Assembly: GCA_965203165.1 (NCBI GenBank)
Contig: OZ241849.1
Coordinates: 1,680,563-1,744,562 of the forward strand
DNA from: Dehalococcoidia bacterium
Lineage (GTDB): Bacteria; Chloroflexota; Dehalococcoidia; Bin125
Direction: 5' to 3'
DNA length: 64,000 bases
The notes under the pieces are model-generated. The model saw nothing but the letters and a program-made list of their open reading frames with translations. It did not search any database and was not told the origin of the DNA. Position numbers and translations under genes: made by a program. Positions 2,513-64,000 of the stretch are shown here, one piece after another (position 1 is the first letter of the stretch; each line of letters starts with the position of its first letter).

Positions 2513-3208
2513 ATGCGCACCGTGCTGGTGGTGGAGGACGAGCGGCATCTGGCCGAGACGCTGCGCTACAACCTCGAGGGCGAGGGCTATCGCGTGCGCA
2601 CCGCCGGCGACGGCGTCGAGGGACTCTCCCTGGCGCGCACGCTCCAGCCAGATCTGGTGCTGCTCGACCTGATGCTGCCCGCGATGGATGGCGTGGGCGT
2701 GCTGCGCGGCATCCGCGAAGAGTCGCAGGTGCCGGTGCTGCTGCTGACGGCGCGCACCTCCGAGGCCGACCGCGTGCGTGGGCTGGACCTCGGCGCGGAC
2801 GACTACATCACCAAGCCGTTCAGCGTCGCCGAGCTGCTGGCGCGCGTGCGCGCGCAGCTGCGCCGCAAGCGGCCCGAACCGACCACCGCCGCCGACCGCA
2901 CGATCGGGTTCGGCCCGCCCGACAAGCGGTTCACGCTCGACCTCAACCGCCGCCAACTGCGGCGCGGCGACGAGCCGATCGCCCTGCGCCCCAAGGAGTA
3001 CGAGCTGCTCGCCTACCTCGCGCAGCGCGACGGACGCACCTTCACCCGCGACCAACTGCTCGACGACGTCTGGGACATCACCTTCGCCGGCGGCACGCGC
3101 ACCGTGGATGTCCACGTTCGCTGGCTGCGGATGAAGATCGAGTCGCCCGACGGCCCGCCGCGTCATCTGATCACCGTGCGGGGGGCGGGCTATCGGTTCG
3201 AGCGATGA
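2513..3208 (+). CDS. OmpR/PhoB-family response regulator
   Basis: Receiver domain (VLVVEDE...DLVLLDLMLP) plus winged-helix trans_reg_C (RPKEYELL...ITVRGAGYRF). Located upstream of a PhoR-like kinase and pstS. Confidence 0.9.
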   Translation: MRTVLVVEDERHLAETLRYNLEGEGYRVRTAGDGVEGLSLARTLQPDLVLLDLMLPAMDGVGVLRGIREESQVPVLLLTARTSEADRVRGLDLGADDYITKPFSVAELLARVRAQLRRKRPEPTTAADRTIGFGPPDKRFTLDLNRRQLRRGDEPIALRPKEYELLAYLAQRDGRTFTRDQLLDDVWDITFAGGTRTVDVHVRWLRMKIESPDGPPRHLITVRGAGYRFER

Positions 3209-4602
3209 GCAGCGGGCGGGCGGGCGCGCCGTCGCCATGGGCCGCGCTGTTCGCGGCGCTGCTCTGGATCGCGGCGGGGTTGATCGCCGCCCAGGGCGGC
3301 TGGGGCGTCCCCGTGGGCATCGCGCTCGGCGCGGCGGGACTGCTGCTCCTGCTCGCGGCGATCGTCTCGGTACACCGCGCTCGGCGGCGGCTGGCTGAAG
3401 CGATCCGCACCGCCGGCGCGGGCGACGCGCCGCTCAACCCGCCCGCCGACGCCGACCTGGCGCAGGCCGTGCGCGCCGTCTCCGACGGCGTGCGCAGCGC
3501 CCGCGAGCTGCTCGGGCAGAGCCAGGCCGAGCGCGCCCAATTCGAGCATGCGCTCTCCGCCGCGGGCGACGCGGTGCTGGCGCTCGACGCCGGCGGGCGC
3601 ATCGCCTACCTCAATCCCGCCGCGCGGGAGTCGCTGGCTCCGGCCGAGGGCGTCTCTCCGCTCCGCATCGGCGCACCCCTAATCGACGCGGTGGGCGACC
3701 CCGACCTCTACGCCGCCGTCGAGACGGCGCGCGCCCAAGGCGGCTCGCAGTCGCTCGCGATCCAGCACAGCGGACGCCGCTACCGCGCCGTCGTCGCGCC
3801 GCTCGGCGAGGACGGGGTCTGGAGCGTCGTCGTCGCGCTGCACGACATGACCGAGCAGCAGGAGGCGGAGACCGCGCGGCGCGACTTCTTCATCAACGCC
3901 TCGCACGAGTTGCGCACCCCGCTGGCGACGATCTCCGCGGCCGCCGAGACGCTTGAGCGGGCGCGCGACGCCGCCGACGCGGGGCGCTTCCGCGAGATCA
4001 TCCAGATCGAAGCCGAGCGGATGAGCCAGCTGGTCGAAGAAATGCTGGCCCTGGCGCGGCTCGAGTCGGGGCTGGCGCAGCCCGATCTGCGTAACGTCGC
4101 CGCCGCCCCGCTGATCGAGCGCGCCGTCGAGCGGATGCGCCCGCAGGCCGAGCGCAACGGCCTCAGCCTGAGCGCCCGGCTCGACCCCGCGGCCGAGGAC
4201 GCGATCGAGGCCGACCCCGACCTGATCCTGCGCGCGCTGCTCAACCTGCTGCAGAACGCGATCAAGTTCACGCCCCAAGAGGGAACCATCGAGGTCTTCA
4301 CCGCAGCCGACGATCTGTCGCAGCCCGCACAGCTTTGGATCCACGTGCGCGACAGCGGCATCGGCGTCGAACCCGCGGAGCAGAGCCGCATCTTCCAGCG
4401 CTTCTACCGCATCGATCGCGCCCGCGCGATGGGCAGCGGCACCGGCCTGGGCCTGGCCGTCGTGCGCCACATCGCCGAGGTGCACGGCGGCGCGGTCTCG
4501 CTGGAGAGCGAGCCGGGCCGCGGCTCCACGTTCGGCTTCTCCGTGCCCAGATCCGCGGACGTATCCGACGCGACAGAAGCGAACTCGCTAACTACTCCTT
4601 AA
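3205..4602 (+). CDS. PhoR-like sensor histidine kinase (TM, PAS, HisKA, HATPase_c)
   Basis: The start ATG overlaps the regulator TGA (ATGA). HisKA H-box FFINASHELRTPL; G-box GTGLGLAVV. The N-terminal 250 aa of the 716-aa track ORF is an overlap artefact. Confidence 0.85.
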   Translation: MSSGRAGAPSPWAALFAALLWIAAGLIAAQGGWGVPVGIALGAAGLLLLLAAIVSVHRARRRLAEAIRTAGAGDAPLNPPADADLAQAVRAVSDGVRSARELLGQSQAERAQFEHALSAAGDAVLALDAGGRIAYLNPAARESLAPAEGVSPLRIGAPLIDAVGDPDLYAAVETARAQGGSQSLAIQHSGRRYRAVVAPLGEDGVWSVVVALHDMTEQQEAETARRDFFINASHELRTPLATISAAAETLERARDAADAGRFREIIQIEAERMSQLVEEMLALARLESGLAQPDLRNVAAAPLIERAVERMRPQAERNGLSLSARLDPAAEDAIEADPDLILRALLNLLQNAIKFTPQEGTIEVFTAADDLSQPAQLWIHVRDSGIGVEPAEQSRIFQRFYRIDRARAMGSGTGLGLAVVRHIAEVHGGAVSLESEPGRGSTFGFSVPRSADVSDATEANSLTTP

Positions 4603-4606
4603 CGCC

Positions 4607-4627
4607 TTGCCAACCTGCCATTAACCG
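4607..4627 (+). promoter_or_regulatory. Candidate PHO-box-like direct repeats (TTGCCAACC / CATTAACCG, about 11-bp phase) upstream of pstS
   Basis: Direct repeats of a (T/C)(A/C)ACC core about 65-85 nt upstream of the pstS start. A similar TTACCG/TTAACCG pair lies upstream of pstC at about 26127-26143. Confidence 0.3.
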
Positions 4628-4693
4628 CCGCCCGCCCGCTCGCGCCATACGCTGTCCCTGCCGTCAGGCGGCACAGGTCCGCGCAACGGGGCA

Positions 4694-5836
4694 ATGGGCC
4701 ATCGAGAGAGGACGAACGCTTTGACACGCTTCAACAAGCCGGGAATTCGCTGGCTGCTGCCGATGCTGCTGCTGATCGGCCTCGCGGCCGTAGCCATCGG
4801 CTGCGGCGGCGGTGACGACGCACAACAGACCGCCGTTCAGGCGACCGAGGCCGAACAGCAGCAGCCCGCCGCCGATACGGCGCAGCAGCAGGGCTCCGAC
4901 TCCTCGTCCGTCGCCGCTGACCTGTCGGGCGAGATCGCGGTCGACGGCTCCAGCACTGTCTTCCCCATCACCGAAGCGATGGCCGCCGAGTTCGGCATCG
5001 CCAACCCTGATGTCCGCGTCACCGTCGGCGTCTCCGGCACCGGCGGCGGCTTCAAGCGCTTCTGCGCGGGCGAGACGGATATCTCCGACGCCTCCCGCCC
5101 GATCCGGAGCGCCGAAGTCGAACTCTGCGATGAGAACGGGATCAGCTTCATCGAAGTGCCCGTCGCCTACGACGGTCTCACCGTCGTGGTCCACCCCGAC
5201 AACGACTGGGTCGACCAGCTCACCGTCGCCGAGCTGAACACGATCTTCCGTCCCGACGACTACGCGGTGACCTGGGCCGATGTGCGCGACGGCTTCCCCG
5301 ATGTCGAAATCTCGCTCTTCGCTCCGGGCGCCGACTCCGGCACGTTCGACTACTTCACCGAGACAATCAACGACGACGGCGGCGTCCACCGCTCCGACAA
5401 CACCACCTTCTCCGAGGACGACAACGTGCTCGTGCAGGGCGTCTCCGGCGAGCGTGGCGGAATCGGCTACTTCGGCTTCTCCTACTACGCCAACAACTCG
5501 GACCGGCTCAAGGCCGTGCCGATCATCAACGACGCCGGCGCGGCCGTCGTCCCCAGCCTCGAGACGATCAACGACGGCTCCTACAACCCGCTCTCGCGCC
5601 CGCTGTTCATCTACGTCAGCGTCGCTTCGCTGGACCGCTCGGAGGTCGCCGCCTTCGTCGAGTACTACGTCACCGACGGCGTCTTCCTGGTCGACTCGCC
5701 CGAGGTCGGCTACGTGCAGCTGCCCGAGGAGCTCTACGCCGCCGCGCTGACCCGCGCGCAGGAGCGCATCACCGGCTCCGCCATCGCGCTCGCCCAGGAG
5801 GGCCAGACCCTGGCCTCAATCTACGGCGCGGAGTAG
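4694..5836 (+). CDS. pstS: Phosphate ABC transporter substrate-binding lipoprotein PstS
   Basis: Signal peptide with lipobox (AIGC) and PstS-family motifs ([20 protein letters not shown]). Confidence 0.9.
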
Positions 5837-26013: not shown

Positions 26014-26230
26014 GGGAGTGCGTCTTCCAGAATCAGGGTAGTGGGCGGCGCAGCCGCCGCTGGGCGCAGCCGCGCTGTCGTGCGTTGGGGACATATTGAG
26101 CGCTGGTTGACATGCGGAGGCGGCGCTTACCGCTTGTTAACCGTTGTCGGACTGGCGCTTCGTAGCGTTTGCCGGGTTGCCGCTATGCGTTCCCCGAGAC
26201 GGTGGGGGCGGCGGGGCAGGAGCGGGCGGG

Positions 26231-27208
26231 ATGGCTGCGCAAGCGCCGCGACAGCGCGATACGGTGGTCGGCCTGCTGGCCGAACTCTGGCGCGACAAAC
26301 TCCAACCCAGCCGCTCCGGCACCGGCCGCGAAACCCTCTCCGGACGCATCATCCACGGCGCACTCTTCATCGTCGCCACACTCTCCGCCTTCGTCACCGT
26401 CGGCATCGTCCTCGTCCTGATCTTCGAAACCGTCGAATTCTTCCGCATCATCCCCTTCGGAGACTTCTTCGGCTCCACCGAATGGTCCGCCCTCTTCGCC
26501 GAAGGACAATTCGGCGTCTGGGCACTCGTCTGGGGCACCCTGCTCGTCGCCGCCCTCGCCCTCGCCGTCGCCGTCCCCCTCGGCCTGCTCGCCGCCATCT
26601 TCCTCAGCGAATACGCCCCCCCGCGCCTCCGCGCCGTCCTCAAACCGCTCCTCGAAGTCCTCGCCGGCGTCCCCACCGTCGTCTACGGATACTTCGCCCT
26701 GCTCACCGTCAGTCCCCTCATCCGCAGCATCTTCGGCCAGGACGTCGGCATCTACAACGCACTCGCCGCCGGCATCGTGCTCGGCATCATGATCATCCCC
26801 ATGGTCTCCTCGCTCAGCGAAGACGCCCTCAACGCCGTCCCCCGCTCCCTCCGCGAAGGCTCCTACGCCCTCGGCGCAACACGCTTCGAAACCGCCGTCC
26901 GCGTCGTCCTCCCCGCCGCCTTCTCCGGCGTCGTCGCCTCCATCATCCTCGCCGCCTCTCGCGCCGTCGGCGAAACCATGATCGTCACCATCGCCGCCGG
27001 CGGCAACCCCCAATTCCTCGTCGACCCCCTCGAAGCCGTCCAGACCATGACCGCCATGATCGTCCAACTCAGCCTCGGCGACACCCCCACCACCAGCGTC
27101 GAATTCAAAGTCCTCTTCGCCGTCGCCATGACCCTCTTCGTCATGACCCTCGCCATGAACATCTTCGCCCAGTGGGTCGTCCGACGCTTCCGCGAGGAAT
27201 ACGAATGA
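26231..27208 (+). CDS. pstC: Phosphate ABC transporter permease PstC
   Basis: Six TM helices and the ABC permease EAA-like region. Start chosen at MAAQAP. Confidence 0.85.
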
Positions 27209-27525
27209 CCCCCCCGCGCCGCTTCCGCGCCGGCCGGCGCGCCGCCGCCTTCGCCGCGCTGTTCGCCCTGGTGCTCGCCCTCGGCGTTTACGCCGCCCAC
27301 ATCGGCCAGGCCACACCCAACTGGCGCGACATCGACGCCCACTACGCCCAGCTGGGCGGCGCAGACCACTCCGACGCACGCTACGACCCGGCGCTCTGCG
27401 ACGCCTTCGCTCACTCCCTGCGACTCAACAAGAACGCCTTCGCCCGCCACCCGACCATCACCAGCGGCGCCCAGAGCCGCATCTACCTGGCCGACGAATA
27501 CGCCCGCCACTGCGAGACGCCATGA
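27205..27525 (+). CDS. Small (106 aa) predicted single-TM protein inserted between pstC and pstA, coupled by ATGA overlaps at both ends
   Basis: ATG 27205 overlaps the pstC TGA and its TGA overlaps the pstA ATG. It has a hydrophobic helix [18 protein letters not shown] and GC3-rich codon usage. Confidence 0.45.
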
Positions 27526-28835
27526 CCGCCGCCGCCTTCGACCCGCCCTCCGCTCCGCGCTTCCAGCCGCGCGTCGCCCTCCGCCGACTCTTCTCCAGAG
27601 CCTTCCTCGGCGGCTGCTTCCTCGCCATCTGCGTCGGCGTCGTGCTGCTCGGCGCGCTCGTGATCGAAGTCGCAATCGACGGCGGCGCAGTGCCCGCCGC
27701 CCCTCCCAGCGGCGCGTCGCTGCCCCAGGGACTCGCCTGGCTCGCCTGGGCCTTCCCCCTGGCCGTGCTCGCCCCCTTCCTCCTGCCCCGCCTGATCCAC
27801 AAGGTCCACGACCGCGCCCGAAACTCCCCGCGCCGCTTCGCCGCGCTCTGCCTGCTCTGCGCCGCCCCCGCCGCCGTCTTCGCCCACATCATCTACGTCA
27901 GCTTCGAGGGCGCTTACTACGTCGGCGTCGAAGGTCACATCTTCGACCTGCTCGGCCAAGCCACCACCTGGCAAACCTTCCGCATCGCCCTGGCCGGCTT
28001 CCTCTTCCCCCTCCTCCTGCTCGCCGCCGCCTGGCGCGCCGCCCCACGCCTCCGCAGCCCCTCACTCATCTGGCCCGCCATCATCCTCGCCGCCTGGGCC
28101 GTCTACCTCTTCATCGAGCCCAACTTCCTCGCCTCTCCCCCCTCCCACGCTCCCGACCGCATCGGCATCTTCCCCGCACTGATCGGCACCCTCTACATGA
28201 TGACCATCACCGCCGCCGTCGCCTTCCCTCTCGGCGTCGGCGCGGCCATCTACCTCGAAGAATACGCCCGCCGCAACTGGTTCTCCCGCTTCATCCAGGT
28301 CAACATCGCCAACCTCGCCGGCGTCCCCTCAATCGTCTACGGACTGCTCGGCCTCCAACTCTTCGTCCGCGTGCTCGAATTCGACCGCAGCGTCCTCGCC
28401 GGCGCGCTCACCATGGCCCTGCTCGTCATGCCCATCATCATCGTCAGCGCCCAGGAATCCCTCCGCGCCGTCCCACCCTCAATGCGCGAAGCCGCCTACG
28501 CCGTCGGCGCAACCCGCTGGCAAGTCATCCGCCATCACGTCCTCCCCTACGCCTTCGGCGGCATGCTCACCGGCAACATCCTCGCCATGTCCCGCGCCAT
28601 CGGCGAAACCGCGCCACTCATCGCCATGGGCGCGCTCACCTTCATCGCCTTCCTGCCCGACGCCCCCACCGACGACTTCACCGTCCTCCCCATCCAAATC
28701 TTCAACTGGGTCACCCGCCCCCAATCCGCCTTCCACGAAATCGCCGCCTCCACCATCATCATCCTCCTGCTCATCCTCCTGCTCATGAACAGCGCCGCCA
28801 TCATCATGCGCCACCGCACCCGCACCGAGTGGTAA
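27522..28835 (+). CDS. pstA: Phosphate ABC transporter permease PstA (with an N-terminal extension)
   Basis: C-terminal 290 aa typical of PstA ([12 protein letters not shown]...). Confidence 0.85.
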
Positions 28836-28889
28836 TCTTCCCTATCGCGCCCCCCCGCGCCGCCGCCCGGCGCTCCGAAAGGAACTCCG

Positions 28890-29828
28890 ATGTCGCAACA
28901 GCCAGCCGCTCCGCCCGCGCCCGACCACGCGGCCGAGCAGCGCGCGCCGGCCGCCCCACAGGACCTTGGCCCCGTGATCGCCGCGCCCGAACCCGGCGGC
29001 AAAATCGACTCCGTCCACCTCGACCCCAACCGCAGCGCCGTCCGCCACACAATCCCCGACGACGTCCAACTCGCCCTCGAACTCCACGAAGTCTCCGTCT
29101 ACTACGGCTCCTTCCAGGCCGTCGACCGCATCAGCATCCAAATCCCCCGCAACCGCGTCACCGCACTGATCGGTCCCTCCGGCTGCGGCAAAAGCACCCT
29201 CCTCCGCTGCCTCAACCGCATGAACGACCTCATCCCCTCCGCACGCGTCGAAGGCGCAATCCGCTTCGGCGAACTCAACCTGCTCAGCCCCAAAGTCGAC
29301 GCCGTCGACGTCCGCCGACGCATCGGCATGGTCTTCCAAAAACCCAACCCCTTCCCCAAATCAATCTTCGAAAACGTCGCCTTCGGCGCACGCATCAACG
29401 GCTACGCCGGCGACATGGACCGCCTCGTCGAAAACTCCCTCCGCCGCGCCGCACTCTGGGACGAAGTCAAAGACGACCTCGGCAAAAGCGGCCTCGCCCT
29501 CTCCGGCGGACAGCAACAGCGCCTCTGCATCGCACGCGCCATCGCCGTCCAGCCCGAAGTCATCCTCATGGACGAACCCGCCAGCGCACTCGACCCCGTC
29601 GCCACACTCAAAATCGAAGACCTCATGCGCGAACTCGCCGAGGACTACACCATCGTCGTCGTCACCCACAACATGCAGCAGGCCGGGCGCGTCTCCGACT
29701 TCACCGCCTTCCTCCTCGCCGGCGAAGAACGCACCGGACGCCTCGTCGAATTCGGCCCCACCACCGACATCTTCACCAACCCCGCAGACCCCCGCACGGA
29801 AGACTACATTACCGGAAGGTACGGCTGA
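28890..29828 (+). CDS. pstB: Phosphate ABC transporter ATP-binding protein PstB
   Basis: Walker [10 protein letters not shown], the LSGGQQQR signature, and Walker B ILMDEP. Confidence 0.9.
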
Positions 29829-29868
29829 TCGGGCCTCGCGCCCGGCTCCCAGCGCCGGGATTCCCCTC

Positions 29869-30543
29869 ATGACACGCACCGCCTACACCAACGATCGACA
29901 GGGAGCGGTCGACCGCCTGCGCCTGCTCCACGCGCGCACCGACCGCAGCATCGTCGACGCCATGCAATCCCTCCTCCGACGCGACCTCGTCCTCGCACGC
30001 AGCGTCTGCGACGGCGACGCCGCCATCAACGAACTCCGCTACGAAATCGAAGAAACCGTCCTCAACCTCATCGCGCTCCAACAACCCGTCGCCGGCGACC
30101 TCCGCGAACTCATCTCCCTCAACGCCATCGCCTCCAACCTCGAACGCATCGCCGACCACGCCGAAGGCATCGCCCGCATCGCCATCTTCCTCGAAGACGA
30201 CCCCATCGCCGCCACCGAACCCGACCTCTGGCGCATGTCCGACCTCGTCCGCGAAATGCTCCGCAACGCCACTCGCTCCTTCCTCGACCGCGACGACGCC
30301 CTCGCGCGCAGCACCTGCGACCAGGACGACCAGGTCGACGACCTCTACACCGACCTCCACCGACGCCTCATCGCCCGCCTCGCCGGCGTCGACAGCGCCG
30401 CCGCCGACTTCGACGCCATCACCCACGTCCTCTGGTGCAGCCACAACCTAGAGCGCATCGGCGACCGCGCCACCAACATCTGCGAGCGCGCCATCTTCCT
30501 AGTCACCGGCCGCTTCCAAGAAATCAACGTCTCCAAGTACTGA
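29869..30543 (+). CDS. phoU: Phosphate-specific transport system accessory protein PhoU
   Basis: Two PhoU repeats. Follows pstB. Confidence 0.85.
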   Translation: MTRTAYTNDRQGAVDRLRLLHARTDRSIVDAMQSLLRRDLVLARSVCDGDAAINELRYEIEETVLNLIALQQPVAGDLRELISLNAIASNLERIADHAEGIARIAIFLEDDPIAATEPDLWRMSDLVREMLRNATRSFLDRDDALARSTCDQDDQVDDLYTDLHRRLIARLAGVDSAAADFDAITHVLWCSHNLERIGDRATNICERAIFLVTGRFQEINVSKY

Positions 30544-31184: not shown

Positions 31185-31970
31185 TCAGCCGTAGCGCTCC
31201 TCGCGCCAGGGGTCGCCGTGCATGTGGTAGCCGTACATCTCCCAGAAGCCGGGCGCGTCGCGGGTGAGAAACTCGATCCCGCCGACCCATTTGGCGCTCT
31301 TCCAGAAATAGAGCGAGGGCACCACGACGCGGGCGGGCCCGCCGTGCTCAGGCCGCAGCGGCGCGCCGTCGTGCGCCACCGCGATCATCGCGTGATCGTC
31401 GGCGCGCAGGTCGGCCAGCGGAATGTTGGCGGTGTAGCCGCCGAAGCAGTGGAACATCACCGCCTCGGCCTGCGGCGAGATCTCCAGCTGGGCGAACAGG
31501 TCGCTGAGCAGCACGCCCTGCCAGGTGTTGTCGTAGCGCGACCAGTGAGTGACGCAGTGAATGTCGTTGAAGCGCTCGGAGAGCCCGAGCGCCGTGAACT
31601 GCTCCCAGTCGAAGACGCGCTCCTGCGCGACCGCGCCCCAGATCTGCAGGGTCCAGTCCTGCGTTTCCACCAGCGGCGTGCCGCCGTAGGTGAGCACCGG
31701 CCACTCGCGCACCAGCCGCTGCCCGGGCGGCAGCCGGTCATGCCCCGTGCGCGCGCGCAGCTCCTGGGCCTCGCTGAAGAGCGGGCCGCGCAGCGGCGCA
31801 GCGGGCTGGCTCGGGGGCTGCACAGAGGGCTGGGCGATGGTCGGATCTTCGGACACGGGCGCACTCCTTCGCCCGCGGACTGGGGCGGAATTCAGATTGA
31901 GCGTATCGCATCGCGGGGCGGCGGCGGGCGCGCAGGCTGTAGGCTGGCAGACAAATGGCCGGCGCGACAT
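31185..31970 (-). CDS. Sulfite-oxidase-like molybdopterin oxidoreductase (YedY/MsrP-like catalytic domain). The start is uncertain
   Basis: Oxidored_molyb domain motifs (HCVTHWSRYDNTWQG). Confidence 0.7.
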   Translation of the reverse strand: MSRRPFVCQPTACAPAAAPRCDTLNLNSAPVRGRRSAPVSEDPTIAQPSVQPPSQPAAPLRGPLFSEAQELRARTGHDRLPPGQRLVREWPVLTYGGTPLVETQDWTLQIWGAVAQERVFDWEQFTALGLSERFNDIHCVTHWSRYDNTWQGVLLSDLFAQLEISPQAEAVMFHCFGGYTANIPLADLRADDHAMIAVAHDGAPLRPEHGGPARVVVPSLYFWKSAKWVGGIEFLTRDAPGFWEMYGYHMHGDPWREERYG

Positions 31971-32518
31971 CCTCGGTTTCGGAGACGGACGCGCCGCCCC
32001 GACGCGGGCAGCTGCGCCGCCACCTGCTCTTCTTGGGCGCAGCCGCGCTGGTCGTCGCCCTGGACCAGATCACCAAGCTGATCGTGCGCGAGTCGCTGGA
32101 ACTGGGCGAACGCGAGTGGCTGGCGCAGTTTTTCGCCTTCTCGCACGTCGCGAACGACGGCGGAGCCTTCGGCATCTTCGGCGGCGCGAACACGATCCTG
32201 GCGGTTTCGGCGGTGGTCGCGATCGCGATCGTGCTCGCCTACTACCTCTGGCCGCCGCTCAATCACTGGCTGATCCGCAGCGGGTTGGCGCTGATTCTGG
32301 GCGGCGCAGTGGGCAACCTGCTCGATCGCATCTACCAGGGCCACGTGACCGACTTCATCGACTTCATCCACTTCCCCGCGTTCAATGTGGCCGACGCGGC
32401 GATCAACGTGGGCGTGGCCGCGGTGATCATCGCGATCCTGTTCCCCGACAGCCGCCGTTGGCTGGCCCGACGCCGAATGCGGCGGCAGTGGCGGCGGCAG
32501 GCGCGGCGGCAACCCTGA
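31955..32518 (+). CDS. lspA: Lipoprotein signal peptidase II
   Basis: LspA motifs (FSHVANDGGAFG and FNVADAAINVG). Confidence 0.75.
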   Translation: MAGATSSVSETDAPPRRGQLRRHLLFLGAAALVVALDQITKLIVRESLELGEREWLAQFFAFSHVANDGGAFGIFGGANTILAVSAVVAIAIVLAYYLWPPLNHWLIRSGLALILGGAVGNLLDRIYQGHVTDFIDFIHFPAFNVADAAINVGVAAVIIAILFPDSRRWLARRRMRRQWRRQARRQP

Positions 32519-35134: not shown

Positions 35135-35208
35135 TGGGGATTGGTCTAGTGGTAGGACGACTGACTCTGGATCAGTTAGCGGGGGTTCGAATCCTCCATC
35201 CCCAGCCA
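35135..35208 (+). tRNA. tRNA-Gln (anticodon CUG), CCA encoded
   Basis: Manual cloverleaf: acceptor tggggat/atcccca, D-stem gtct/ggac, anticodon stem actga/tcagt with loop ctCTGga, T-arm ggggg-ttcgaat-cctcc. Coordinates are +/-2. Confidence 0.85.
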
Positions 35209-35237: not shown

Positions 35238-35314
35238 GGGGCATTCGTCTAGCGGCCTAGGACACCGCCCTCTCAAGGCGGAGATCGGGGGTTCGAATCC
35301 CCCATGCCCTACCA
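35238..35314 (+). tRNA. tRNA-Glu (anticodon CUC), CCA encoded
   Basis: Manual cloverleaf: acceptor ggggcat/atgccct, D-arm tcgtctagcggcctaggac (E. coli tRNA-Glu-like), anticodon stem ccgcc/ggcgg with loop ctCTCaa, T-arm ggggg-ttcgaat-ccccc. Coordinates are +/-2. Confidence 0.85.
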
Positions 35315-43086: not shown

Positions 43087-43330
43087 CCTCCGTCATACCC
43101 GCGCTTGCCGCGCGCGGATATCTCGCCGCGGTGAGGGCCAAGCAACCGTCCACGCCTCCCACAGCCTCGCGCGTCACCCCCATTGGGTGCCGCCGGACAT
43201 CTGGATTGGGGTGTTGCGCTGCGCGAGAGGGTCTGCGCAGGAACGACCGGAGAGGGTGGCGGAGGCAGGCGCGGGGCTCCGTGCAGAGCTCGGCGAGATA
43301 CCCGCGGCGAGCGCGGGTATGACGGAGTTG
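43087..43330. repeat. MITE-like unit: inverted REP1 copies (43089-43130 and 43293-43328) bracketing about 160 bp
   Basis: ccgtcatacccgcgcttgccgcg ... cgcggcgagcgcgggtatgacgg in inverted orientation. A GTTCACAC flank motif lies at about 43044. Confidence 0.5.
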
Positions 43331-43391
43331 ATTTAGCGCAGGTAGGGCGGAGTTGGAGGGCGGGGGTGGCGGGGTGGTGGTGGTGTGGGCG

Positions 43392-44827: not shown

Positions 44828-45125
44828 AATCCGTCGTTCCTGCCTGCGCGTGGGTTCCTGCCTGCGCAGGAATGACGGAAGGGGGCGCGATGTGGATGAG
44901 CGGGGCGCGGCGCGATTGGTGGGCTGGTTCGCGGTGCGATTGGTGGGCTGGCGCGCGGCGCGATTGGCGGGCTGGCACGCGGTGCGATTGGTGGGCTGGT
45001 TCGCGGCGTTCCACCCCCCACCTAACCTCCCCCCTGGAAGGGGGGAGGGATGAATTGGGGAAGGGGCGAGTATTGGGGTGGGTTCCTGCCTGCGCGTGGG
45101 TTCCTGCCTGCGCAGGAATGACGGA
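44828..45125. repeat. Composite repeat: REP2 doublet direct repeats (44828-44880 and 45079-45125) flanking a 24-bp x4 tandem (gcgattggtgggctggttcgcggt, about 44911-45005) and the GGGGAGGGATGAATTGGGG palindrome motif
   Basis: Seen directly in the sequence. Confidence 0.8.
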
Positions 45126-49313: not shown

Positions 49314-49628
49314 TCCGTCATTCCTGCGTAGGCAGGAACCCAGGTGATCTCCAGCGCCCGTATGCGCCACGATGCCGCGACGGTCCACCTGAGCCGCTCT
49401 GCGCTGCCGCTGGACATTCAACGCCACGCTGAGCCGCTCCTACTGCGTGGGTTCCTGCCTACGCAGGAATGACGGAAGGGGCGCAGGGGCGCAGGGCGGG
49501 GTTGGGCGCCGGGTGCGGCGAGATGCTCGCGGCGAGCGCGGGTTCCTGCCTGCGCAGGAATGACGAAAGTGGCAGCGGGTTCCTGCCTGCGCAGGAATGA
49601 CGGAAAGGGCGTAGGAGTGACGGAATGT
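49314..49628. repeat. Cluster of four REP2 hairpins (one joined to a REP1-like fragment at about 49517-49567)
   Basis: ttcctgc(g/c)...gcaggaatgacgga repeated at 49314, 49449, 49540 and 49578. Confidence 0.85.
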
Positions 49629-51708: not shown

Positions 51709-53107
51709 GGGGCGTGGTTAAGCGACCTCTGGGGATGGGGAATACCGGGGTAACCGACAGCGCGGTTGAGCGGCTTTGGGTGGTCGCTTCCAGCTCAACA
51801 TCAGACTCGACAATCGCGACATGATCGACCACGACACGATAGGTCAAGCCCGGCTCCAGATTGTCGAACGTGTACGCTGTGGTGCCGTTGTAGACCCTCT
51901 CGTGCCTGATGCCCGAGCGCGTGGGGTGAAACAGCATCAAGCGGTAGTCGTCGTTTGCCGCGTCGGGGTACGGCGCATCCCAACTCACCGTAATGCTGTT
52001 GCTGGTTGTCGTCGTCCGTACATTTTGCGCGCCGCGCGGCGGCGCGGTCCAGCCGGGCGGCGCAGGCAGCGTGCGGACCATGGTTGAGGCCAGCAAAGGT
52101 TCCGGGGACTCGCCGAGTTGTACTCGGACCGTGTACTCGCGGTCTGGCGGAACATTGCGGAAAATGATCGTGGGAGTCCCGTCGCTGTGGTCGTCCGGAT
52201 CATAGATCTCGCCGTCGCTCACTCGTGGGCGAGCGCCAGACAGATCGTCAAGGAGGACGTAGAAGAAGCTCACCGACGGCTGCTCATCCCAGGTCACGGT
52301 CACAGTGTCATGCGTGGCGGTCGCTGATACGCCGGTGGGTGAGGTAAGCGTAGTCGCCGTACGGTCGATCCAGATCAGGGCGTTGGGCGTTTCAGATTCG
52401 ATCCGATCGCGCAGCGATGCGAACTCGAACCGGTACTCAACGCCTTTGCGCAGCCCGACGATGTTGACGTGCATCGCGTGATCGAGGTAGTGGGTATGTT
52501 CGAGCAGCTCATAAGTCCAGGCGGTCGTGCCGGTAGGGCGCCAACGGGCCAGGAAGTGAGAGGTTGCGCCGTTCGGCTTGCTGGTATCAACGGTCCAGCC
52601 GCTAACGATGTCGTTGCGATAGGCGATCAGAGGTATCGCCGGCGGAGCCGGCAGCGCCCGCGCCCTTGCCACATCGAGCGCCGCCTCGCGCCGCACGCCC
52701 CTCGAGTCCGTCACCGTCGCCGTGACCCGCTTGGCGGCCAGCGCCGCATCCTCGTCTGCGGCCTCCGCCTCGCTCAGCGCGCCGCAGTTGATGCGGACGT
52801 TGTCGGCGTCCGCGTTGACGGGGGTTCCTTCAACTTGCAGCTTGTAGGGCGGCTTGCCGACCGCGATCTGCCAGGAGATTTCAGTCAGCGTGCCCGCGGT
52901 GCAGAGCTCGCGCGAGCTTGCCAGCTCGAGCCTGAGGCGCTGGCGCCACTCGATCAGGGCCAGCCAGAGGCGTGGATCGGCTGACCAGCGCTCCACGAGC
53001 GGCGCGTCCGCATCGGGCGGCGCGTCGGCCCGCGCGGGTCCCGCCGCGCCGAGCAACGCCGCGAACAGCCCGATCAGTCCAATCAGCGCCATTGCCGTCA
53101 AGCGCAT
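51653..53107 (-). CDS. Secreted repeat protein: conserved 140-aa N-terminal domain (DPRLWLALIEWRQRLRLEL...CTAGTLTEISWQIA...INCGAL) plus FN3-like modules
   Basis: Signal peptide MRLTAMALIGLIGLFAALLGAAGPARA. Paralog of 53318..55885 and of the 5' partial gene. Confidence 0.65.
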   Translation of the reverse strand: MRLTAMALIGLIGLFAALLGAAGPARADAPPDADAPLVERWSADPRLWLALIEWRQRLRLELASSRELCTAGTLTEISWQIAVGKPPYKLQVEGTPVNADADNVRINCGALSEAEAADEDAALAAKRVTATVTDSRGVRREAALDVARARALPAPPAIPLIAYRNDIVSGWTVDTSKPNGATSHFLARWRPTGTTAWTYELLEHTHYLDHAMHVNIVGLRKGVEYRFEFASLRDRIESETPNALIWIDRTATTLTSPTGVSATATHDTVTVTWDEQPSVSFFYVLLDDLSGARPRVSDGEIYDPDDHSDGTPTIIFRNVPPDREYTVRVQLGESPEPLLASTMVRTLPAPPGWTAPPRGAQNVRTTTTSNSITVSWDAPYPDAANDDYRLMLFHPTRSGIRHERVYNGTTAYTFDNLEPGLTYRVVVDHVAIVESDVELEATTQSRSTALSVTPVFPIPRGRLTTPPTPLAPATGCTPRGGRRR

Positions 53108-53317
53108 TCAGAGACCCCTTCATTCACTGCGATGTTAGCCAGACGCGCGGGCGCGCCGTTTGGTTCCCGCGCGGCGGTCAGCGCGAACAGTGCTGCGATC
53201 CGGATGCGCATCCGAGACCTCCTGCGCTGGTCGTAATGATGAACGGGCGGAGATGAGTGTGCCCGCGCCGCGCGGGTTCGCGGCTTTCGGAGCGCATGGG
53301 CGTACCTGACGGCGCGG

Positions 53318-55885
53318 CTAGCGGCTTTGGGTGGTCGCTTCCAGCTCAACGGCGGACTCGACAATCGCGAGGTGATCGACCACAACTCGGTAGGTCAAGC
53401 CCGGCTCCAGATTGTCGAACGTGTACGATGTGGTGCCGTTGTCGACCCACTCATGCCTGATTCCGGAGCGCGTGGGGTGAAACAGCATCAAGTGGTAGCT
53501 GTCGTCCTCTGCGTCGGGGTACGGCGCTTCCCAACTCACCGTGATGCTGTTGCTGGTCGTCGTCGTCCGCACATTTTGCGCGCCGCGCGGCGGCGCGGTC
53601 CAACCTTGGGGCGGCGATGTGGTGCGTACCGTCGTGGTTGCTTCCAGCGGATCATCTGACTCGCTGAGAGACCACGTGCCCACCCGCACTCGCACCGTGT
53701 ATTCGCGGTCGGAGGGGACGTTGCGAAAGACGACCGAATACGCTTCGCCGTCATGCTCGCGCGGTATGTAGATCTCGGCATCGTCCACGCGCGGGAGCCG
53801 ATCCGACGAGCCCTCGAGGTATACGCGGAAGAAGCTTGCCGACGGCTGTTCGTCCCACGTTACAGTCACTGTGCTGTGTGTGGCCGTTGCCGACAAACCC
53901 GTTGGCTCTGCCAGCGTCCTGGTCGAGCTGCGCACCCAGCGCAAAGCCTCCGGCGTCCTGGCTTCAATGCGATGTCGCATCGTTGCAAATTCGAACTGGT
54001 AGTCGGTACCTTGACGCAGGTCCCAGAGGAGGACAGGCGCTACGCCTAGCGGCGCATGTTTGTGTTCCCACGCTCTGGTGGACCACTCGGTCGACGTCGT
54101 AGGTCGCCAGCGCATGATGAAAAGCGAAGTGGCGCCGTCCGGCTTGGTTTCGTCGCCCAGCAGTCCAGTTGTGATCGCCTCGCCGTAAGCGACTATGCCT
54201 GTGGTTCTCGGCGCAGGCAGCGCATGCGCCCTTGCCACATCGATCGCCGCCTCGCGCCGCACGCCCCTCGAGTCGGTCGCCACCGCCGTGACCCGCTTGG
54301 CGGCCAGCGCCGCATCCTCGTCCGCGGCCTCCGCTTCCGTCAGCGCGCCGCAGTTGATGCGGATGTTGTCGGCGTCTGCGTTGACGGGGGAGCTTGCGAC
54401 TTGCAGATTGTAGGGCGGCTTGCCGCCCGCGATCTGCCAGGAGATTTCCGTCAGCGTGCCTGCGGTGCAGAGTTCGCGGGAGCTTGCCAGCTCGAGTCTC
54501 AGGCGCTGGCGCCACTCGATCAGGGCGAGCCAGAGACGCGGGTCGGCTGGGTAGCCCGGCGAGCTTTGGCCCTGCACGGGCGCTGGTGTAGTGGTGACGG
54601 TTGTCGAAACCTCGACACCGTACAGGTCGAGATGAGCCACGGTGACTGTGTATGTGGTCGCGGGTGTCAGGCCTTCCAGGGTGAACGTCAGTGGTGCGCT
54701 CACCCAGCGGCTGTACGGGCGACGCCAACTCGAATGCTCGACGTAGACGATCCAGCGATCGCGCGTGTTCGGAGTGGGCGCGTCCCAAGTAGCTGTGATC
54801 GTGTCGTGCGTCGCGGTGACGCTGAGGCTCTGCGCGCCGCGCGCTGGCGCCTGCCAAGCGGTTGGCGCCGCAACCGTGGTTGCCCGGATCGTTGTACGGA
54901 GTTGCGCTTCGTCGTCGCCGTGAACTGAAACGTGAATTTTGTACTCCGTCTCCGGCTCGAGATCGATGTGCGTCACCTGGTTCGTCACAACCGCATCACG
55001 GCGCCGCATGATCACTCTCCTGCTGCGTCCAGCCCCATCAGCGCGAATGAGGTCCACGTAGACGTAACTGACCGATGGTTGATCATCCCAGCTCACGGTG
55101 ATCGTGTCGTGCGTACTGGTCGTACGGACGCCCGTTGGCGTGGTCGCGGTCGTCGCTTCAAGGTTCCCGCTCCAGATGAGCGCATCAAGCGTTGACTGCT
55201 CGATCGGATCGCGCAGCGATGCGACTGCGAATACGTAGGAGGATCTTTCGGCGAGACCGCTGAAGGCCGCTATCACGATCTCGAGCTGACCTGTCGAGCC
55301 GATGAGTTTGTATGTCCAGTTCGAATCAGTTGCAGCACGCCAGCGCATCAGCCACCAGCCGCTCCCCGCGACCCAGCTTGTGCTAACCAGGGTCCGCTGA
55401 ACCACTGGAGTGCGCAGATGCGGCGCCGGCAGCGCCCGCGCTCTTGCCACATCGATTGCCGCCTCGCGCCGCACGCCCCTCGAGTCCGTCACCACGGCGC
55501 TGATCCGCTTGGCGGCCAGCGACGCATCCTCGTCCGCCGCCTCCGCCTCGCTCAGCGCGCCGCAGTTGATGCGGATGTTGTCGGCGTCGGCGTTGACGGG
55601 GGTTCCTTCGACTTGCAGCTCGTAGGGCGGCTTGCCGCCCGCGATCTGCCAGGAGATTTCTGTCAGCGTGCCTGCAGTGCAGAGTTCGCGCGAGCTTTCC
55701 AGCTCGAGCCTCAGGCGTTGGCGCCACTCAATCAGGGCGAGCCAGAGGCGCGGATCGGCCGACCAGCGCTCCGCCGCCGGCTCGCCCGCATCCGGCGGCG
55801 CGTCGGCCTGCGCGGGTCCCGCCGCGCCGAGCAGCGCTGCCAGCAGTGCGAGCAGCCCAATCAGCGCCATTGCCGCCACGCGCAT
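53318..55885 (-). CDS. Secreted repeat protein, large paralog. The 140-aa conserved domain occurs twice; FN3-like modules follow
   Basis: Start chosen at MRVAAMALIGLLALLAALLGAAGPAQA (signal peptide). Long stretches are near-identical to 51653..53107 at the DNA level. Confidence 0.65.
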   Translation of the reverse strand: MRVAAMALIGLLALLAALLGAAGPAQADAPPDAGEPAAERWSADPRLWLALIEWRQRLRLELESSRELCTAGTLTEISWQIAGGKPPYELQVEGTPVNADADNIRINCGALSEAEAADEDASLAAKRISAVVTDSRGVRREAAIDVARARALPAPHLRTPVVQRTLVSTSWVAGSGWWLMRWRAATDSNWTYKLIGSTGQLEIVIAAFSGLAERSSYVFAVASLRDPIEQSTLDALIWSGNLEATTATTPTGVRTTSTHDTITVSWDDQPSVSYVYVDLIRADGAGRSRRVIMRRRDAVVTNQVTHIDLEPETEYKIHVSVHGDDEAQLRTTIRATTVAAPTAWQAPARGAQSLSVTATHDTITATWDAPTPNTRDRWIVYVEHSSWRRPYSRWVSAPLTFTLEGLTPATTYTVTVAHLDLYGVEVSTTVTTTPAPVQGQSSPGYPADPRLWLALIEWRQRLRLELASSRELCTAGTLTEISWQIAGGKPPYNLQVASSPVNADADNIRINCGALTEAEAADEDAALAAKRVTAVATDSRGVRREAAIDVARAHALPAPRTTGIVAYGEAITTGLLGDETKPDGATSLFIMRWRPTTSTEWSTRAWEHKHAPLGVAPVLLWDLRQGTDYQFEFATMRHRIEARTPEALRWVRSSTRTLAEPTGLSATATHSTVTVTWDEQPSASFFRVYLEGSSDRLPRVDDAEIYIPREHDGEAYSVVFRNVPSDREYTVRVRVGTWSLSESDDPLEATTTVRTTSPPQGWTAPPRGAQNVRTTTTSNSITVSWEAPYPDAEDDSYHLMLFHPTRSGIRHEWVDNGTTSYTFDNLEPGLTYRVVVDHLAIVESAVELEATTQSR

Positions 55886-55961: not shown

Positions 55962-56230
55962 TGTTCACACTTCTCTAGATCCGTCATCCCGCGGCGAGCG
56001 CGGGTATGCGGGTCAATTTCGCGCGCGGGGTGGGGGAGATGGGAGCGGGGGCTTGGTACGCAGCGCGGCGAGATACCCGCGGCGGAGCGCGGGTATGACG
56101 GTTTTGCTTCGCGCGGGTGTGGCGGAGGTGTTTGCGCGGGTGTGGCGGAGGTGTTTGCGCGGGGGTGGCGGAGGTGTTTGCGCGGGTATGGCGGAGGTGT
56201 TTGCGCGGGGGTTGCGGGGTTGTTGCGTGG
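55962..56230. repeat. Two REP1 hairpins plus a 23-bp x4 tandem (ggtgtggcggaggtgtttgcgcg), preceded by a GTGTTCACAC flank
   Basis: Seen directly in the sequence. Confidence 0.85.
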
Positions 56231-56242
56231 GGCGCGCGCCCG

Positions 56243-59212: not shown

Positions 59213-59727
59213 CAGTCGTCTTCGCGCTCGCGTTTGCGGCGTAGTTCTTCTTCCGCGCGGCACCTCGCCCCGCCCCAGATGTCCGGCGGCGCTTGGATGC
59301 CGCCTTCGCGGGGGTGGGGAGCGCGGGAGACGGGGACGGGGTTTGGTGCTCAGCGCGGCGAGATACCCGCGGCAAGCGCGGGTATGACGGAGTGGGGGGT
59401 GCGGGGGTATGACGGAGTGGCGAGCGCGGAGGTGTCGGAGTGGGGAGCGCGGGAGACGGGGACGGGGTTTGGTGCTCAGCGCGGCGAGATACCCGCGGCA
59501 AGCGCGGGTATGACGGAGTGGGGGTGCGGGGGTATGACGGAGTGGCGAGCGCGGAGGTGTCGGAGTGGGGAGCGCGGGCATGACGGAGTGGGAGCGCGGG
59601 GGTGTCGGAGTGGGGAGCGCGGGTATGACGGAGTGGGGGTGCGGGGGGTGTCGGGAGAGGGAAGCGTGAACAGGCTTTAGTCGTCTTCGCGCTCGCGTTC
59701 GCGGCGCAGCTCTTCTTCCACGCGGCG
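59213..59727. repeat. REP1-rich insert (two roughly 120-bp higher-order units) bracketed by 48-bp direct repeats. The left repeat is a duplicated 3' end (last 14 codons plus stop) of the minus-strand gene 59677..60117
   Basis: Left tcagtcgtcttcgcgctcgcgtttgcggcgtagttcttcttccgcgcgg vs right ttagtcgtcttcgcgctcgcgttcgcggcgcagctcttcttccacgcgg. Confidence 0.8.
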
Positions 59728-61584: not shown

Positions 61585-62545
61585 CACTTCCGTCATTCCT
61601 GCCTGTGCGGGAATGACGGAAGTGCGGTGCAGGTGTGGCGGGGGCAGTCGCGGGGCTCCGTGCTGTGCGCGGCGAGATACCCGCGGCGAGCGCGGGTATG
61701 ACGGTCTTCTCTCGCGCGGGTGTGGCGGAGCTGTCTTGCGTGGGTACGACGGTCTTCTCTCGCGCGGGTGTGGCGGTCTTCTCTTGCGCGGGTGTGGCGG
61801 AGCTGTCTTGCGTGGGGTGGCGGTGGTGGGGCGCAGGTGTGGCGGGGGCAGTCGCGGGGCTCCGTGCTGTGCGCGGCGAGATACCCGCGGCGAGCGCGGG
61901 TATGACGATTTTCTCTCGCGCGGGTATGACGGTCTTCTCTCGCGCGGGTACGACGGTCTTCTCTCGCGCGGGTGTGGCGGAGCTGTCTTGCGTGGGGTGG
62001 CGGTGGTAGCGCGCAGGTGTGGCGGTGGCAGTCGCGGGGCTCCGTGCTGTGCGCGGCGAGATACCCGCGGCGAGCGCGGGTATGACGGTCTTCTCTCGCG
62101 CGGGTGTGACGATTTTCTCTCGCGCGGGTGTGGCGGTCTTCTCGCGCGCGGGTATGACGGTCTTCTCTCGCGCGGGTGTGGCGGAGCTGTCTTGCGTGGG
62201 GTGGTGGAGCTGTCTCGCGCGGGTGTGGCGGTGGCAGTCGCGGGGCTCTCCGTGCTGTGCGCGGCGAGATACCCGCGGCGAGCGCGGGTATGACGGTCTT
62301 CTCTCGCGCGGGTGTGACGGTCTTCTCTTGCGCGGGTGTGGCGGAGCTGTCTTGCGTGGGGTGGCGGTGGTGGGGCGCAGGTGTGGCGGAGCTGTCTTGC
62401 GTGGGTGTGGCGGAGCTGTCTTGCGTGGGTGTGGCAGAGCTGTCTTGCGTGGGTGTGGCAGAGCTGTCTCGCGCGGGTGTGGCGGTGGTGTTTTGCGCGG
62501 GTGTGGCGGTGGTGTTTTGCGTGGGGTGGCTGGCGCATGCGGGAT
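61585..62545. repeat. Higher-order tandem array of about 960 bp: one REP2 hairpin, then four roughly 200-bp units, each holding a REP1 hairpin (61674, 61877, 62057, 62266) followed by 24-bp tandem repeats (tcttctctcgcgcgggtgtggcgg / agctgtcttgcgtgggtgtggcgg)
   Basis: Seen directly in the sequence. Fills the divergent intergenic region between the SDR gene and the penicillin acylase gene. Confidence 0.85.
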
Positions 62546-62556
62546 AATCGAGCCTA

Positions 62557-64000
62557 ATGGGCTCCATGAGCAGTCTGCGGCGCGGGTCTGCGCTTGCTTT
62601 GCGGCAGGGGGTTGGGCTGCTGCGGGCGCTGGGCGGGGAGGCTTGGCCGCTGCGGGGGCGCGTTCGGCGGCGCGGGCGCGAGACTGTTTCGGGCATTGGG
62701 GCGGAGATTGAGATCATCCGCGACCACTGGGGGGTGCCGCACTGCTTTGCGGAGTCCGTGGCCGACGCGCTTTTTGCGCTGGGCTACGTGCATGCGCAGG
62801 ATCGGCTCTGGCAGATGCACTGGAGTCGGCGGGCGGCGCTGGGCCGGATTGCGGAGCTGGTCGGTCCGCTCGGGCTGCCGGCGGATCGCCTGACGCGCAC
62901 GCTGGGCATCGGGCGCGTCTCGCTGGCGGCGTGGGAGGCGACGTCGCAGCGGCAGCGCGACGAGCTCGCGCCCTATATCGCGGGGGTGAACGCCGGGGCG
63001 GCGCGCGCGCCCGCGCCGTTTGAGGCGCGGATGCTCGATGGGCGAATTGAGCCGTGGGAGCCGCCGCACTCGATCGCCTGGGGCAAGCTGCTCTCGTTTC
63101 TGCTTGCGCCGGCCTGGGAGCAGCAGTTGCTGCGGGCGGGCGTCTACGAGCGGGCGGGCGGCGAGGCGTTGCGGGCGATCGACCCGCCGATCTCGTCTGA
63201 GGCGGCGGTGGTGACGCCGCCCGAAGCGGCGTATGGGCGGCTCGCGGGGCCGGCGCAGGACGGCGCGCGGGCGCTGGCGGAGCTGCTGGGGCTGCGGGGC
63301 GGGGCGAGCAATAATTGGGCGGTCGCGGGCGCGAGGACGAAGAGCGGGCGGCCGATTCTGGCCTGCGATCCGCACCTCACCCCGGTGACGCCGCCGCATG
63401 CCTACTTCGCCCACCTGCACTGCCCGGAGTTCGACGCGGCGGGCGCGACGGTGCCGGGCCTGCCGGGGATCGTCTGGGGCTGCAACGACCAAATTGCCTG
63501 GGGTCCGACGGCGGCGATGCAGGCGATGCACATCGCGGTGGTGGAGGAGCTGAACGACGCGGGCGACGCGACGCGCACGCCGGAGGGCTGGGCGCCGATC
63601 GAGCGCAGCCGTGAGGAGATTGCGGTGCGGGGGTATCCGTCGGAGTGGATCGAGCTGCGGCGCAGCGTTCACGGGCCGATCGTCTCGGAGGCGCTCGCGC
63701 CGCAGCGCGCGCCGCAATTCCGCAGCGAGCATGCGGCGAAGCGGGCGATCAGCCTGCAGTCGGCGGTGCTGAGCCCCAACCAGAGCGGCTCGGCGATTGT
63801 GGCGCTGATGCAGGCGACGGACTGGGAAAGCTTCTCCGCGGCGGCGGGCGGGATCGACGATTTCAATCTCGCGTTCGCCTACGCGGACACGGCGGGGTCG
63901 ATCGGGATGCGGGTTTCGGGCGCGGTACCGGCGGGCGATCCGCAGGCGCTGCGGCTGCCGGTCGCGGGCTGGCTTGCGGCGGAGCAGGGCGGCGCGCCAA
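62557..64000 (+). CDS. Penicillin acylase (Ntn-hydrolase peptidase S45) family protein, 3'-truncated by the window end
   Basis: Frame-1 translation MGSMSSLRRG...IRDHWGVPH...GASNNWAV (beta-subunit nucleophile Ser) continues to the window end. Not in the ORF track because no stop codon lies in the window. Confidence 0.8.
   Translation, partial: MGSMSSLRRGSALALRQGVGLLRALGGEAWPLRGRVRRRGRETVSGIGAEIEIIRDHWGVPHCFAESVADALFALGYVHAQDRLWQMHWSRRAALGRIAELVGPLGLPADRLTRTLGIGRVSLAAWEATSQRQRDELAPYIAGVNAGAARAPAPFEARMLDGRIEPWEPPHSIAWGKLLSFLLAPAWEQQLLRAGVYERAGGEALRAIDPPISSEAAVVTPPEAAYGRLAGPAQDGARALAELLGLRGGASNNWAVAGARTKSGRPILACDPHLTPVTPPHAYFAHLHCPEFDAAGATVPGLPGIVWGCNDQIAWGPTAAMQAMHIAVVEELNDAGDATRTPEGWAPIERSREEIAVRGYPSEWIELRRSVHGPIVSEALAPQRAPQFRSEHAAKRAISLQSAVLSPNQSGSAIVALMQATDWESFSAAAGGIDDFNLAFAYADTAGSIGMRVSGAVPAGDPQALRLPVAGWLAAEQGGAP

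Follow-up and report, generated by a model that had tools for sequence, protein, structure and literature searches.

The phosphate importer PstSCAB and its partner PhoU are usually treated as a fixed four-plus-one system, which raises the question of what an additional gene, wedged between the two permease genes, contributes to this operon in an uncultured Dehalococcoidia bacterium. The DNA in question, referred to as the window, is a stretch of 64,000 nucleotides (GenBank assembly GCA_965203165.1, contig OZ241849.1, positions 1,680,563 to 1,744,562 of the forward strand), and the gene, here termed X, occupies positions 27205..27525 of its plus strand and encodes a single-pass membrane protein of 106 amino acids, as judged from the sequence, its orthologs, and the ratio of nonsynonymous to synonymous substitution rates (dN/dS). 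A preliminary description of the window had singled out this open reading frame (ORF), with its two ATGA junctions, as an extra relative to the canonical pst operon; its coordinates are verified in the sequence, and X matches neither PstS, PstC, PstA, PstB, or PhoU nor any Pfam or NCBIfam family. The locus encodes a Pst importer to which a conserved membrane protein of a new small family has been added. X is proposed to be an N-in/C-out fifth, lineage-specific subunit of the importer that works near the site of PstS docking, a role whose chances are judged to be about even.

The X frame comprises 106 codons ending in the residues RHCETP and is coupled to both neighbors. Its ATG (27205-27207) overlaps the pstC stop codon TGA (27206-27208) in the tetranucleotide ATGA at 27205-27208, and its own TGA (27523-27525) overlaps the pstA ATG (27522-27524) in a second ATGA at 27522-27525. 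A Shine-Dalgarno sequence, GAGGA (27194..27198, plus strand), lies 6 nt 5′ of the X ATG within the last pstC codons (R-E-E-Y-E). The GAGG(A) element is kept at this distance at 10/10 related junctions, and the X frame together with both four-base overlaps is kept in 10/10 related loci, in line with the earlier placement of X within the translational flow of the operon. In all loci with this gene order, the first overlap is ATGA or GTGA and the second is ATGA. A scan of the operon finds no promoter- or terminator-like site within it, and X is probably made from a pstC-X-pstA-pstB-phoU message and co-produced with the permease subunits. Because X has its own Shine-Dalgarno sequence in the 3′ end of pstC and stop/start overlaps on both sides, its output is likely to be in step with that of the permeases.

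The GC content of the window is 69% and all three plus-strand frames are open across the X region, so that an open frame at this position is uninformative in itself. The GC content of X by codon position (0.70/0.55/0.92) is similar to that of pstC, pstA, pstB, and phoU, which bears out the earlier remark that its codon usage resembles that of its neighbors, and in 120-nt windows the frame with high third-position GC (GC3) passes from that of pstC to that of X at 27205 and to that of pstA at 27522. In a codon alignment of 12 orthologs, all indels are multiples of three, the variable sites at codon positions 1/2/3 number 61/57/92 of 94 gap-free codons, and the median pairwise dN/dS is 0.43 in frame versus 1.14 and 1.56 in the shifted frames, with a value of 0.36 for the part encoding the ectodomain. 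Conservation in relatives, the check that the preliminary description had proposed, thereby finds the X frame kept under purifying selection. The same description had considered that PstA might begin upstream in another frame; the pstA frame has its last stop at 27156 and no ATG, GTG, or TTG between there and 27522, and orthologous PstA proteins start at the same methionine. A sequencing frameshift in pstA is likewise rejected, as long-read and short-read assemblies made independently agree exactly on the junction, and a sister lineage has X at another place in its pst locus. NCBI and ENA records also annotate a gene for precisely the window protein, on a 3.46-Mb contig. By these coding tests, X is a genuine and conserved protein-coding gene.

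A search of 5.8 billion proteins recovers 18 clusters of X at 58-95% identity, none of them named and none with a Pfam domain, and a profile search extends these to 25 clusters that are 34-95% identical to the window protein. When 1.84 billion representatives are searched exhaustively with HMMER, seven proteins reach E≤0.001, five of which are clearly X relatives. The sequence record thus portrays a family that is real but rare. A scan of GTDB species representatives yields eight loci, all from Dehalococcoidia bacterium metagenome-assembled genomes that are mostly complete chromosomes of 3.0-3.4 Mb; one of these, OZ241913.1, carries an X that is 98% identical to that of the window. Metagenome contigs in ENA and Logan, some of them from a Tara sample, supply further members; JGI metagenome contigs scanned with the X alignments gave no relatives. 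There is no NCBIfam match for X at E≤0.1 and no Pfam family common to 12 members; Phage_holin_2 (PF23778) is rejected, having scored 16 bits versus a cut-off of 32 over the hydrophobic segment only and in 1/12 members. The X profile finds nothing below E=0.5 among PDB sequences, and the predicted fold has no PDB match and no resemblance to any known phosphate-binding fold. A search of the six-frame translation of the window with the X profile (hmmsearch) reveals no paralog, and X as a duplicated piece of PstC or PstA is rejected on that ground. In the literature, nothing relevant was found on a gene between pstC and pstA, on small membrane proteins in pst operons, or on Dehalococcoidia pst loci. 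The family, which numbers about 28 protein clusters in total, all without names, thus appears as a small, undescribed one that is restricted to one lineage of uncultured Dehalococcoidia, with members of high GC and one or more of low GC. It can be recognized by (i) a length of about 95-120 amino acids, (ii) an N-terminal helix of the form F..LF......G..A, (iii) a domain with the pattern W-x-[DE]-[IV]-D-x-H-Y ... C ... L-x-L-N-x-N-A ... R ... E-[YF]-x-R-H-C, and (iv) encoding in a pst locus, all of which are found in the window protein.

All contexts of X that were recovered are pst loci, and they fall into three arrangements (loci are designated by L numbers and proteins by P numbers). In type A, the order is (phoB-phoR-)pstS-pstC-X-pstA-pstB-phoU, as in L001, L003-L011, and L022; the pstS-pstC-X-pstA-pstB-phoU order is found in eight GTDB species representatives and in metagenome contigs, and in L013 and L018 X is likewise overlapped on both sides. 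Type B (L014, L015, L017, L021) has the order pstC-pstA-X-pstB-phoU and houses a second subfamily whose X proteins are 34-42% identical to that of the window; L023, listed with these loci, has a direct four-base overlap of pstC with pstA, as does L015. Type C is represented by L012, a locus of 38% GC in which pstB is followed by P0020, a protein of 452 amino acids with an X module fused to the N-terminus of PstS. The linkage of X to pst persists across this change in gene order and across a shift from 69% to 38% GC, and X is exclusively linked to pst loci.

The fusion protein P0020 (L012 8001-9359, directly 3′ of pstB) indicates where X resides. Its residues 19-115 are an X module made up of the hydrophobic helix and the domain, which matches the X profile with E 2.7e-17 and shares 58% identity with P0025, an X protein that stands alone. 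A PstS-type PBP_like_2 domain (137 bits) occupies its residues 149-399. Between the two parts runs a linker rich in Ser, Thr, and Gln, and there is no second signal sequence. PstS and PstB of the window visibly resemble their L012 counterparts closely, and the L012 PstB is 375 amino acids long with a long N-terminal extension. PstS must be located outside the cell. Since the PstS part of P0020 follows X without an intervening hydrophobic segment or a signal peptide of its own, the X domain must be extracytoplasmic as well and the Arg-rich tail cytoplasmic. A lipobox is present in the free PstS proteins of relatives and, as AIGC, in the window PstS, and the N-terminus of the X module in P0020 therefore takes the place of the lipid anchor; this argues for an uncleaved membrane anchor at the N-terminus of X. 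X itself has no lipobox, with its first cysteine at residue 65 and none near the hydrophobic segment. The gene lspA lies within the window at 31955-32518.

X most likely spans the membrane once, in the N-in/C-out orientation, and has three parts; the single transmembrane (TM) segment claimed earlier agrees with the one hydrophobic helix seen in a Kyte-Doolittle scan and in an AlphaFold2 (AF2) model. Residues 1-12 (27205..27240, plus strand) form a variable, Arg-rich tail (RRFRAGRR; mean column conservation 0.42) that the positive-inside rule assigns to the cytoplasm. Residues 13-33 (27241..27303, plus strand) form the hydrophobic helix predicted by AF2, hydropathy, and conservation; the Kyte-Doolittle scan delimits the hydrophobic segment to residues about 10-36, and the AF2 model has a helix over residues 5-33. 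This helix matches the ectodomain in conservation (0.71 vs 0.68), carries a G27xxxA31 motif, and retains (near-)invariant F16, L19, F20, G27, and A30 even at 36% overall identity. Residues 34-106 (27304..27522, plus strand) form a small extracytoplasmic α/β domain, assigned from the AF2 model, the invariant columns, and the P0020 fusion. In 10-residue blocks over residues 41-100, its pLDDT is 91-94, and the order of its elements is H40-50, H62-74, E79-81, E92-94, and H95-102; the AF2 model of the fusion reproduces the same elements with the same confidence. W40, D44, H46, Y47, D54, Y60, N75, N77, R92, E98, Y99, R101, and H102 are (near-)invariant, and C65 (27397-27399) and C103 (27511-27513) are invariant in the family. 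Two invariant cysteines in an oxidizing compartment are consistent with a disulfide, and a C65-C103 bond probably stabilizes the ectodomain.

The indirect grounds for proposing that X associates physically with the core subunits are its exclusive linkage to pst, its translational coupling, the conserved face of its TM helix, and its fusion to PstS. The helix would pack against PstC or against a lineage-specific 10-helix PstA, which would place the ectodomain on the outside, at the docking site of the lipoprotein PstS. In that position it could recruit or position PstS or stabilize the extra loops of PstA. The Dehalococcoidia that carry X lack an outer membrane, and phosphate is scarce in the habitats of many of them. 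By analogy, the purpose of X may be that of the binding domains that are tethered to the translocator in cells without an outer membrane.

The PstA of this locus is itself unusual. Encoded at 27522..28835 (plus strand), it is a long form of 437 amino acids that scores 259.5 bits with TIGR00974 (cut-off 193.45), and the match starts at residue 197, which corresponds to model position 33. A hydropathy scan places about four extra hydrophobic helices (residues ~70-204) between the canonical TM1 and TM2. The insertion (residues ~51-213) has no Pfam family match and carries a conserved outward loop (FEGAYYV...WQ), which is a candidate partner of X. PstA is 433-441 amino acids long in every X-bearing locus with an intact pstA. 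In L022 (6001-7322), a long-read contig, pstA is called as two ORFs of 228 and 212 amino acids with a four-base overlap, probably because of a frameshift or a mistake in assembly and not because the gene is truly split. More tentatively, and with somewhat less confidence than is placed in the subunit role, X and the four-helix insertion may together constitute an unrecognized five-component Pst architecture in which X would be a new-fold part of the PstS docking site or a phosphate captor.

On this more tentative reading, X would be an uncommon case of a small accessory subunit in a type I importer, and one that evolution has at least once fused onto the binding protein. A conserved extra membrane subunit that is always seen with a remodeled PstA would show that the core Pst importer can acquire lineage-specific parts. 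A family of hypothetical proteins would gain a name and a testable role, the natural PstS fusion would offer a handle for structural work, and the result would be relevant to phosphorus acquisition by an uncultured Dehalococcoidia lineage. The scope is narrow, comprising few genomes and uncultured hosts.

Several observations weigh against X as an anchored subunit near PstS. The co-occurrence of X with the long PstA is observed among X-bearing loci only, and the constraint on X is moderate, with pairwise dN/dS of 0.4-0.8 versus 0.04-0.21 for pstC and 0.10-0.37 for pstA. The fusion P0020 comes from one Logan contig and forms a singleton cluster, and its gene lies 53 nt from the contig end; in its AF2 model, the X domain is confident, while the PstS half has a pLDDT below 50 (shallow alignment). 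A G-[VL]-x-A motif just after the hydrophobic stretch of X also fits a signal-peptidase I site, and X may be cleaved and released instead of anchored. Lastly, the 5′ end of X is disrupted in L024 (4928-7528; protein P0010) by an insertion of ~2 kb just after the X start, which may hint that X is dispensable and not strictly essential. The insertion contains an ORF of 246 amino acids of no assigned function along with degenerate pstS- and pstC-like fragments, and X is re-started there as a protein of 175 amino acids with a degenerate PstC N-terminus and an internal duplication of ~22 residues.

The possible cleavage site is the starting point of one alternative, in which X is a secreted extracytoplasmic helper whose disulfide-containing domain of ~75 residues binds phosphate or a phosphate source and passes it to PstS in the manner of ZinT or AztD. 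The G-[VL]-x-A motif follows a hydrophobic core of 14-19 residues, the small domain is rich in invariant Arg, His, Tyr, Asp, and Asn residues, and the PstS fusion would suit a hand-over partner. Cleavage in P0020, however, would untether a PstS that is otherwise lipid-anchored in this lineage, the family-wide conservation within the hydrophobic segment is unusual for a cleaved signal peptide, and X lacks similarity to known phosphate-binding folds, such that this explanation is considered unlikely.

To the same degree improbable is that X serves as an assembly or stability factor for the 10-helix PstA, needed only when its four extra helices are inserted or folded, with any contact to PstS being incidental. 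The encoding of X immediately before or after pstA and the presence of a 433-441 amino acid PstA with a conserved extracytoplasmic loop in every X locus with visible pstA speak for such a role. This co-occurrence is nevertheless drawn from X-bearing loci alone: a homolog search with PstA residues 51-213 gave two truncated proteins only and did not return even close relatives. An assembly role also leaves the PstS fusion unexplained.

A role of X in Pho signaling is less probable still. As a regulator, X would report or modulate the state of the transporter to PhoR or gate the transporter, and would not be needed for transport. It is generally known that sensor kinases and transporters can be modulated by small membrane proteins, X shares a transcription unit with phoU, and phoB-phoR adjoin pstS in the X-bearing lineage. 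Small DUF1127 proteins, moreover, act on PhoR according to one report (PMC12501420). Set against these points, the bulk of what is conserved in X is extracellular, its cytoplasmic tail is short and variable, it tracks the permease genes and not phoR, and its natural fusion is to PstS, not to PhoR or PhoU.

The last alternative, that X is non-functional and represents a chance open frame in a GC-rich spacer or a mis-annotated 5′ part of pstA, has a negligible probability, for although all three plus-strand frames are open and X has no database family or name, GC3 switches frame at both junctions, the protein is conserved down to 34% identity, its indels come in threes and its variation concentrates at third positions, purifying selection is specific to its frame, X is relocated in a sister lineage with pstC and pstA overlapping directly, and the pstA frame offers no upstream start codon; a chance ORF is accordingly rejected.

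The subunit reading, in which X works beside PstS at the outer face, can be set against better-known systems. As in the E. coli type of PstSCAB-PhoU, pstC, pstA, pstB, phoU, and pstS all pass NCBIfam or Pfam cut-offs, the genes are translationally coupled, and a Pho-box-like operator lies upstream; what differs here is (i) the fifth gene between pstC and pstA, (ii) a PstA with about four extra membrane helices, (iii) a conserved candidate operator belonging to pstC itself, and (iv) a pstS located 20 kb away. In cells without an outer membrane, binding proteins are lipid-anchored or tethered to the translocator (PMC8025302). OpuA and GlnPQ resemble the present case in that the binding protein is held at the translocator, and the PstS of P0020 is covalently joined to a membrane-anchored module. 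In those systems, however, the binding domain is fused to the permease, whereas the anchor here, X, is encoded as a small protein by itself, has a folded ectodomain of its own, and is unfused in the window. Neither PstC nor PstA of the window has a binding-protein (PBP) domain, the PstS of P0020 is fused to X and not to a permease, and no sequence or fold relationship was found between X and OpuA/GlnPQ-type systems.

Small membrane proteins that are encoded beside large subunits and co-translated with them include KdpF of KdpFABC, CbiN of the cobalt importer CbiMNQO, and CydX of cytochrome bd, and natural fusions of CbiN to a partner subunit are known. X is like these by function only, being small and encoded among large transporter subunits. 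It has no homology to them (no Pfam match), its transporter is a type I ATP-binding cassette (ABC) importer and hence of a different class, and it possesses a structured, Cys-containing ectodomain of ~70 residues, whereas KdpF and CydX consist of hardly more than one helix and CbiN of two. No small accessory subunit of type I ABC importers is described in the sources checked. ZinT and AztD, periplasmic helpers of the zinc-binding proteins ZnuA and AztC, offer a further parallel, as in each case an ABC importer has an additional extracytoplasmic protein linked to it genetically, and through P0020 X is also linked to the binding protein. ZinT and AztD, however, are larger, soluble, metal-binding proteins with known folds, while X has no fold match, has a conserved hydrophobic helix, and would have an anion as its ligand.

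PstC, PstA, PstB, and PhoU of the window are assigned by curated NCBIfam cut-offs. All are on the plus strand. The permease gene pstC (26231..27208) scores 274.3 bits with TIGR02138 (cut-off 196.45); its start is set by homology, with orthologs beginning M[AT]AQAPQQRD, and the longest ORF begins with TTG at 26144. The ATPase gene pstB (28890..29828) scores 373 bits with TIGR00972, and phoU (29869..30543) scores 178.6 bits with TIGR02135. The phosphate-binding lipoprotein PstS, which has a linker of ~45 amino acids, is encoded at 4721..5836 (PF12849, 137 bits; 81% in tblastn to the pstS of L005). This gene is situated ~20 kb upstream of pstC in the window and adjoins pstC in L001, L003, L005, L007, and L009-L011. 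The pst/pho locus of the window is thus split, with phoB, phoR, and pstS (2513-5836) ~20 kb upstream of pstC-X-pstA-pstB-phoU (26231-30543). Between the two parts lies a minus-strand block whose genes, named from their sequences, include two epoxide-hydrolase-like, ThrC-like, folK/folP-like, two DNA-methyltransferase-like, cysteine-synthase-like, and ResB-like genes.

Both pstC and pstS are preceded by direct repeats. Upstream of pstC by ~90 nt, Pho-box-like repeats of the form CTTACC-N5-TTAACC occur in an 11-nt phase (26127..26143, plus strand), and GCTTACC-N5-TTAACCG is present upstream of pstC in 11/11 loci compared (L001, L003-L011, and L022). Upstream of pstS, there are three or four related repeats ([CT]T[AT]ACC-like) in the same 11-nt phase, which in the window span 4590-4626. 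About 20 nt after each repeat set, a conserved CATACGCT or CGTAGCGT follows. The repeats look like separate candidate PhoB-type operators for pstS and for pstC-X-pstA-pstB-phoU.

Elsewhere in the window, intergenic repeat elements occur at 43246-43369, 44836-45125, 49433-49604, 56048-56232, 59311-59670, and 61614-62557. One of these is a REP-like unit that contains GGCGAGATACCCGCGGCGAGCGCGGGTATGACGG and is flanked by tandem arrays of G-rich units of 23-24 nt; related short matches are also present in the relative L004. A separate region, 51769-55719, harbors repeat families that are 89-92% identical with a start-to-start spacing of about 1.2-1.6 kb, comprising three 300-nt copies from 52642, 54208, and 55420 and two at 51769 and 53320. 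The GC content is slightly lower in this stretch (0.65-0.66), a GC3 filter calls no genes there, and the repeats may be copies of a gene family that arose by tandem duplication. Rfam matches in the window are limited to two adjacent tRNA genes at 35135-35205 and 35238-35311.

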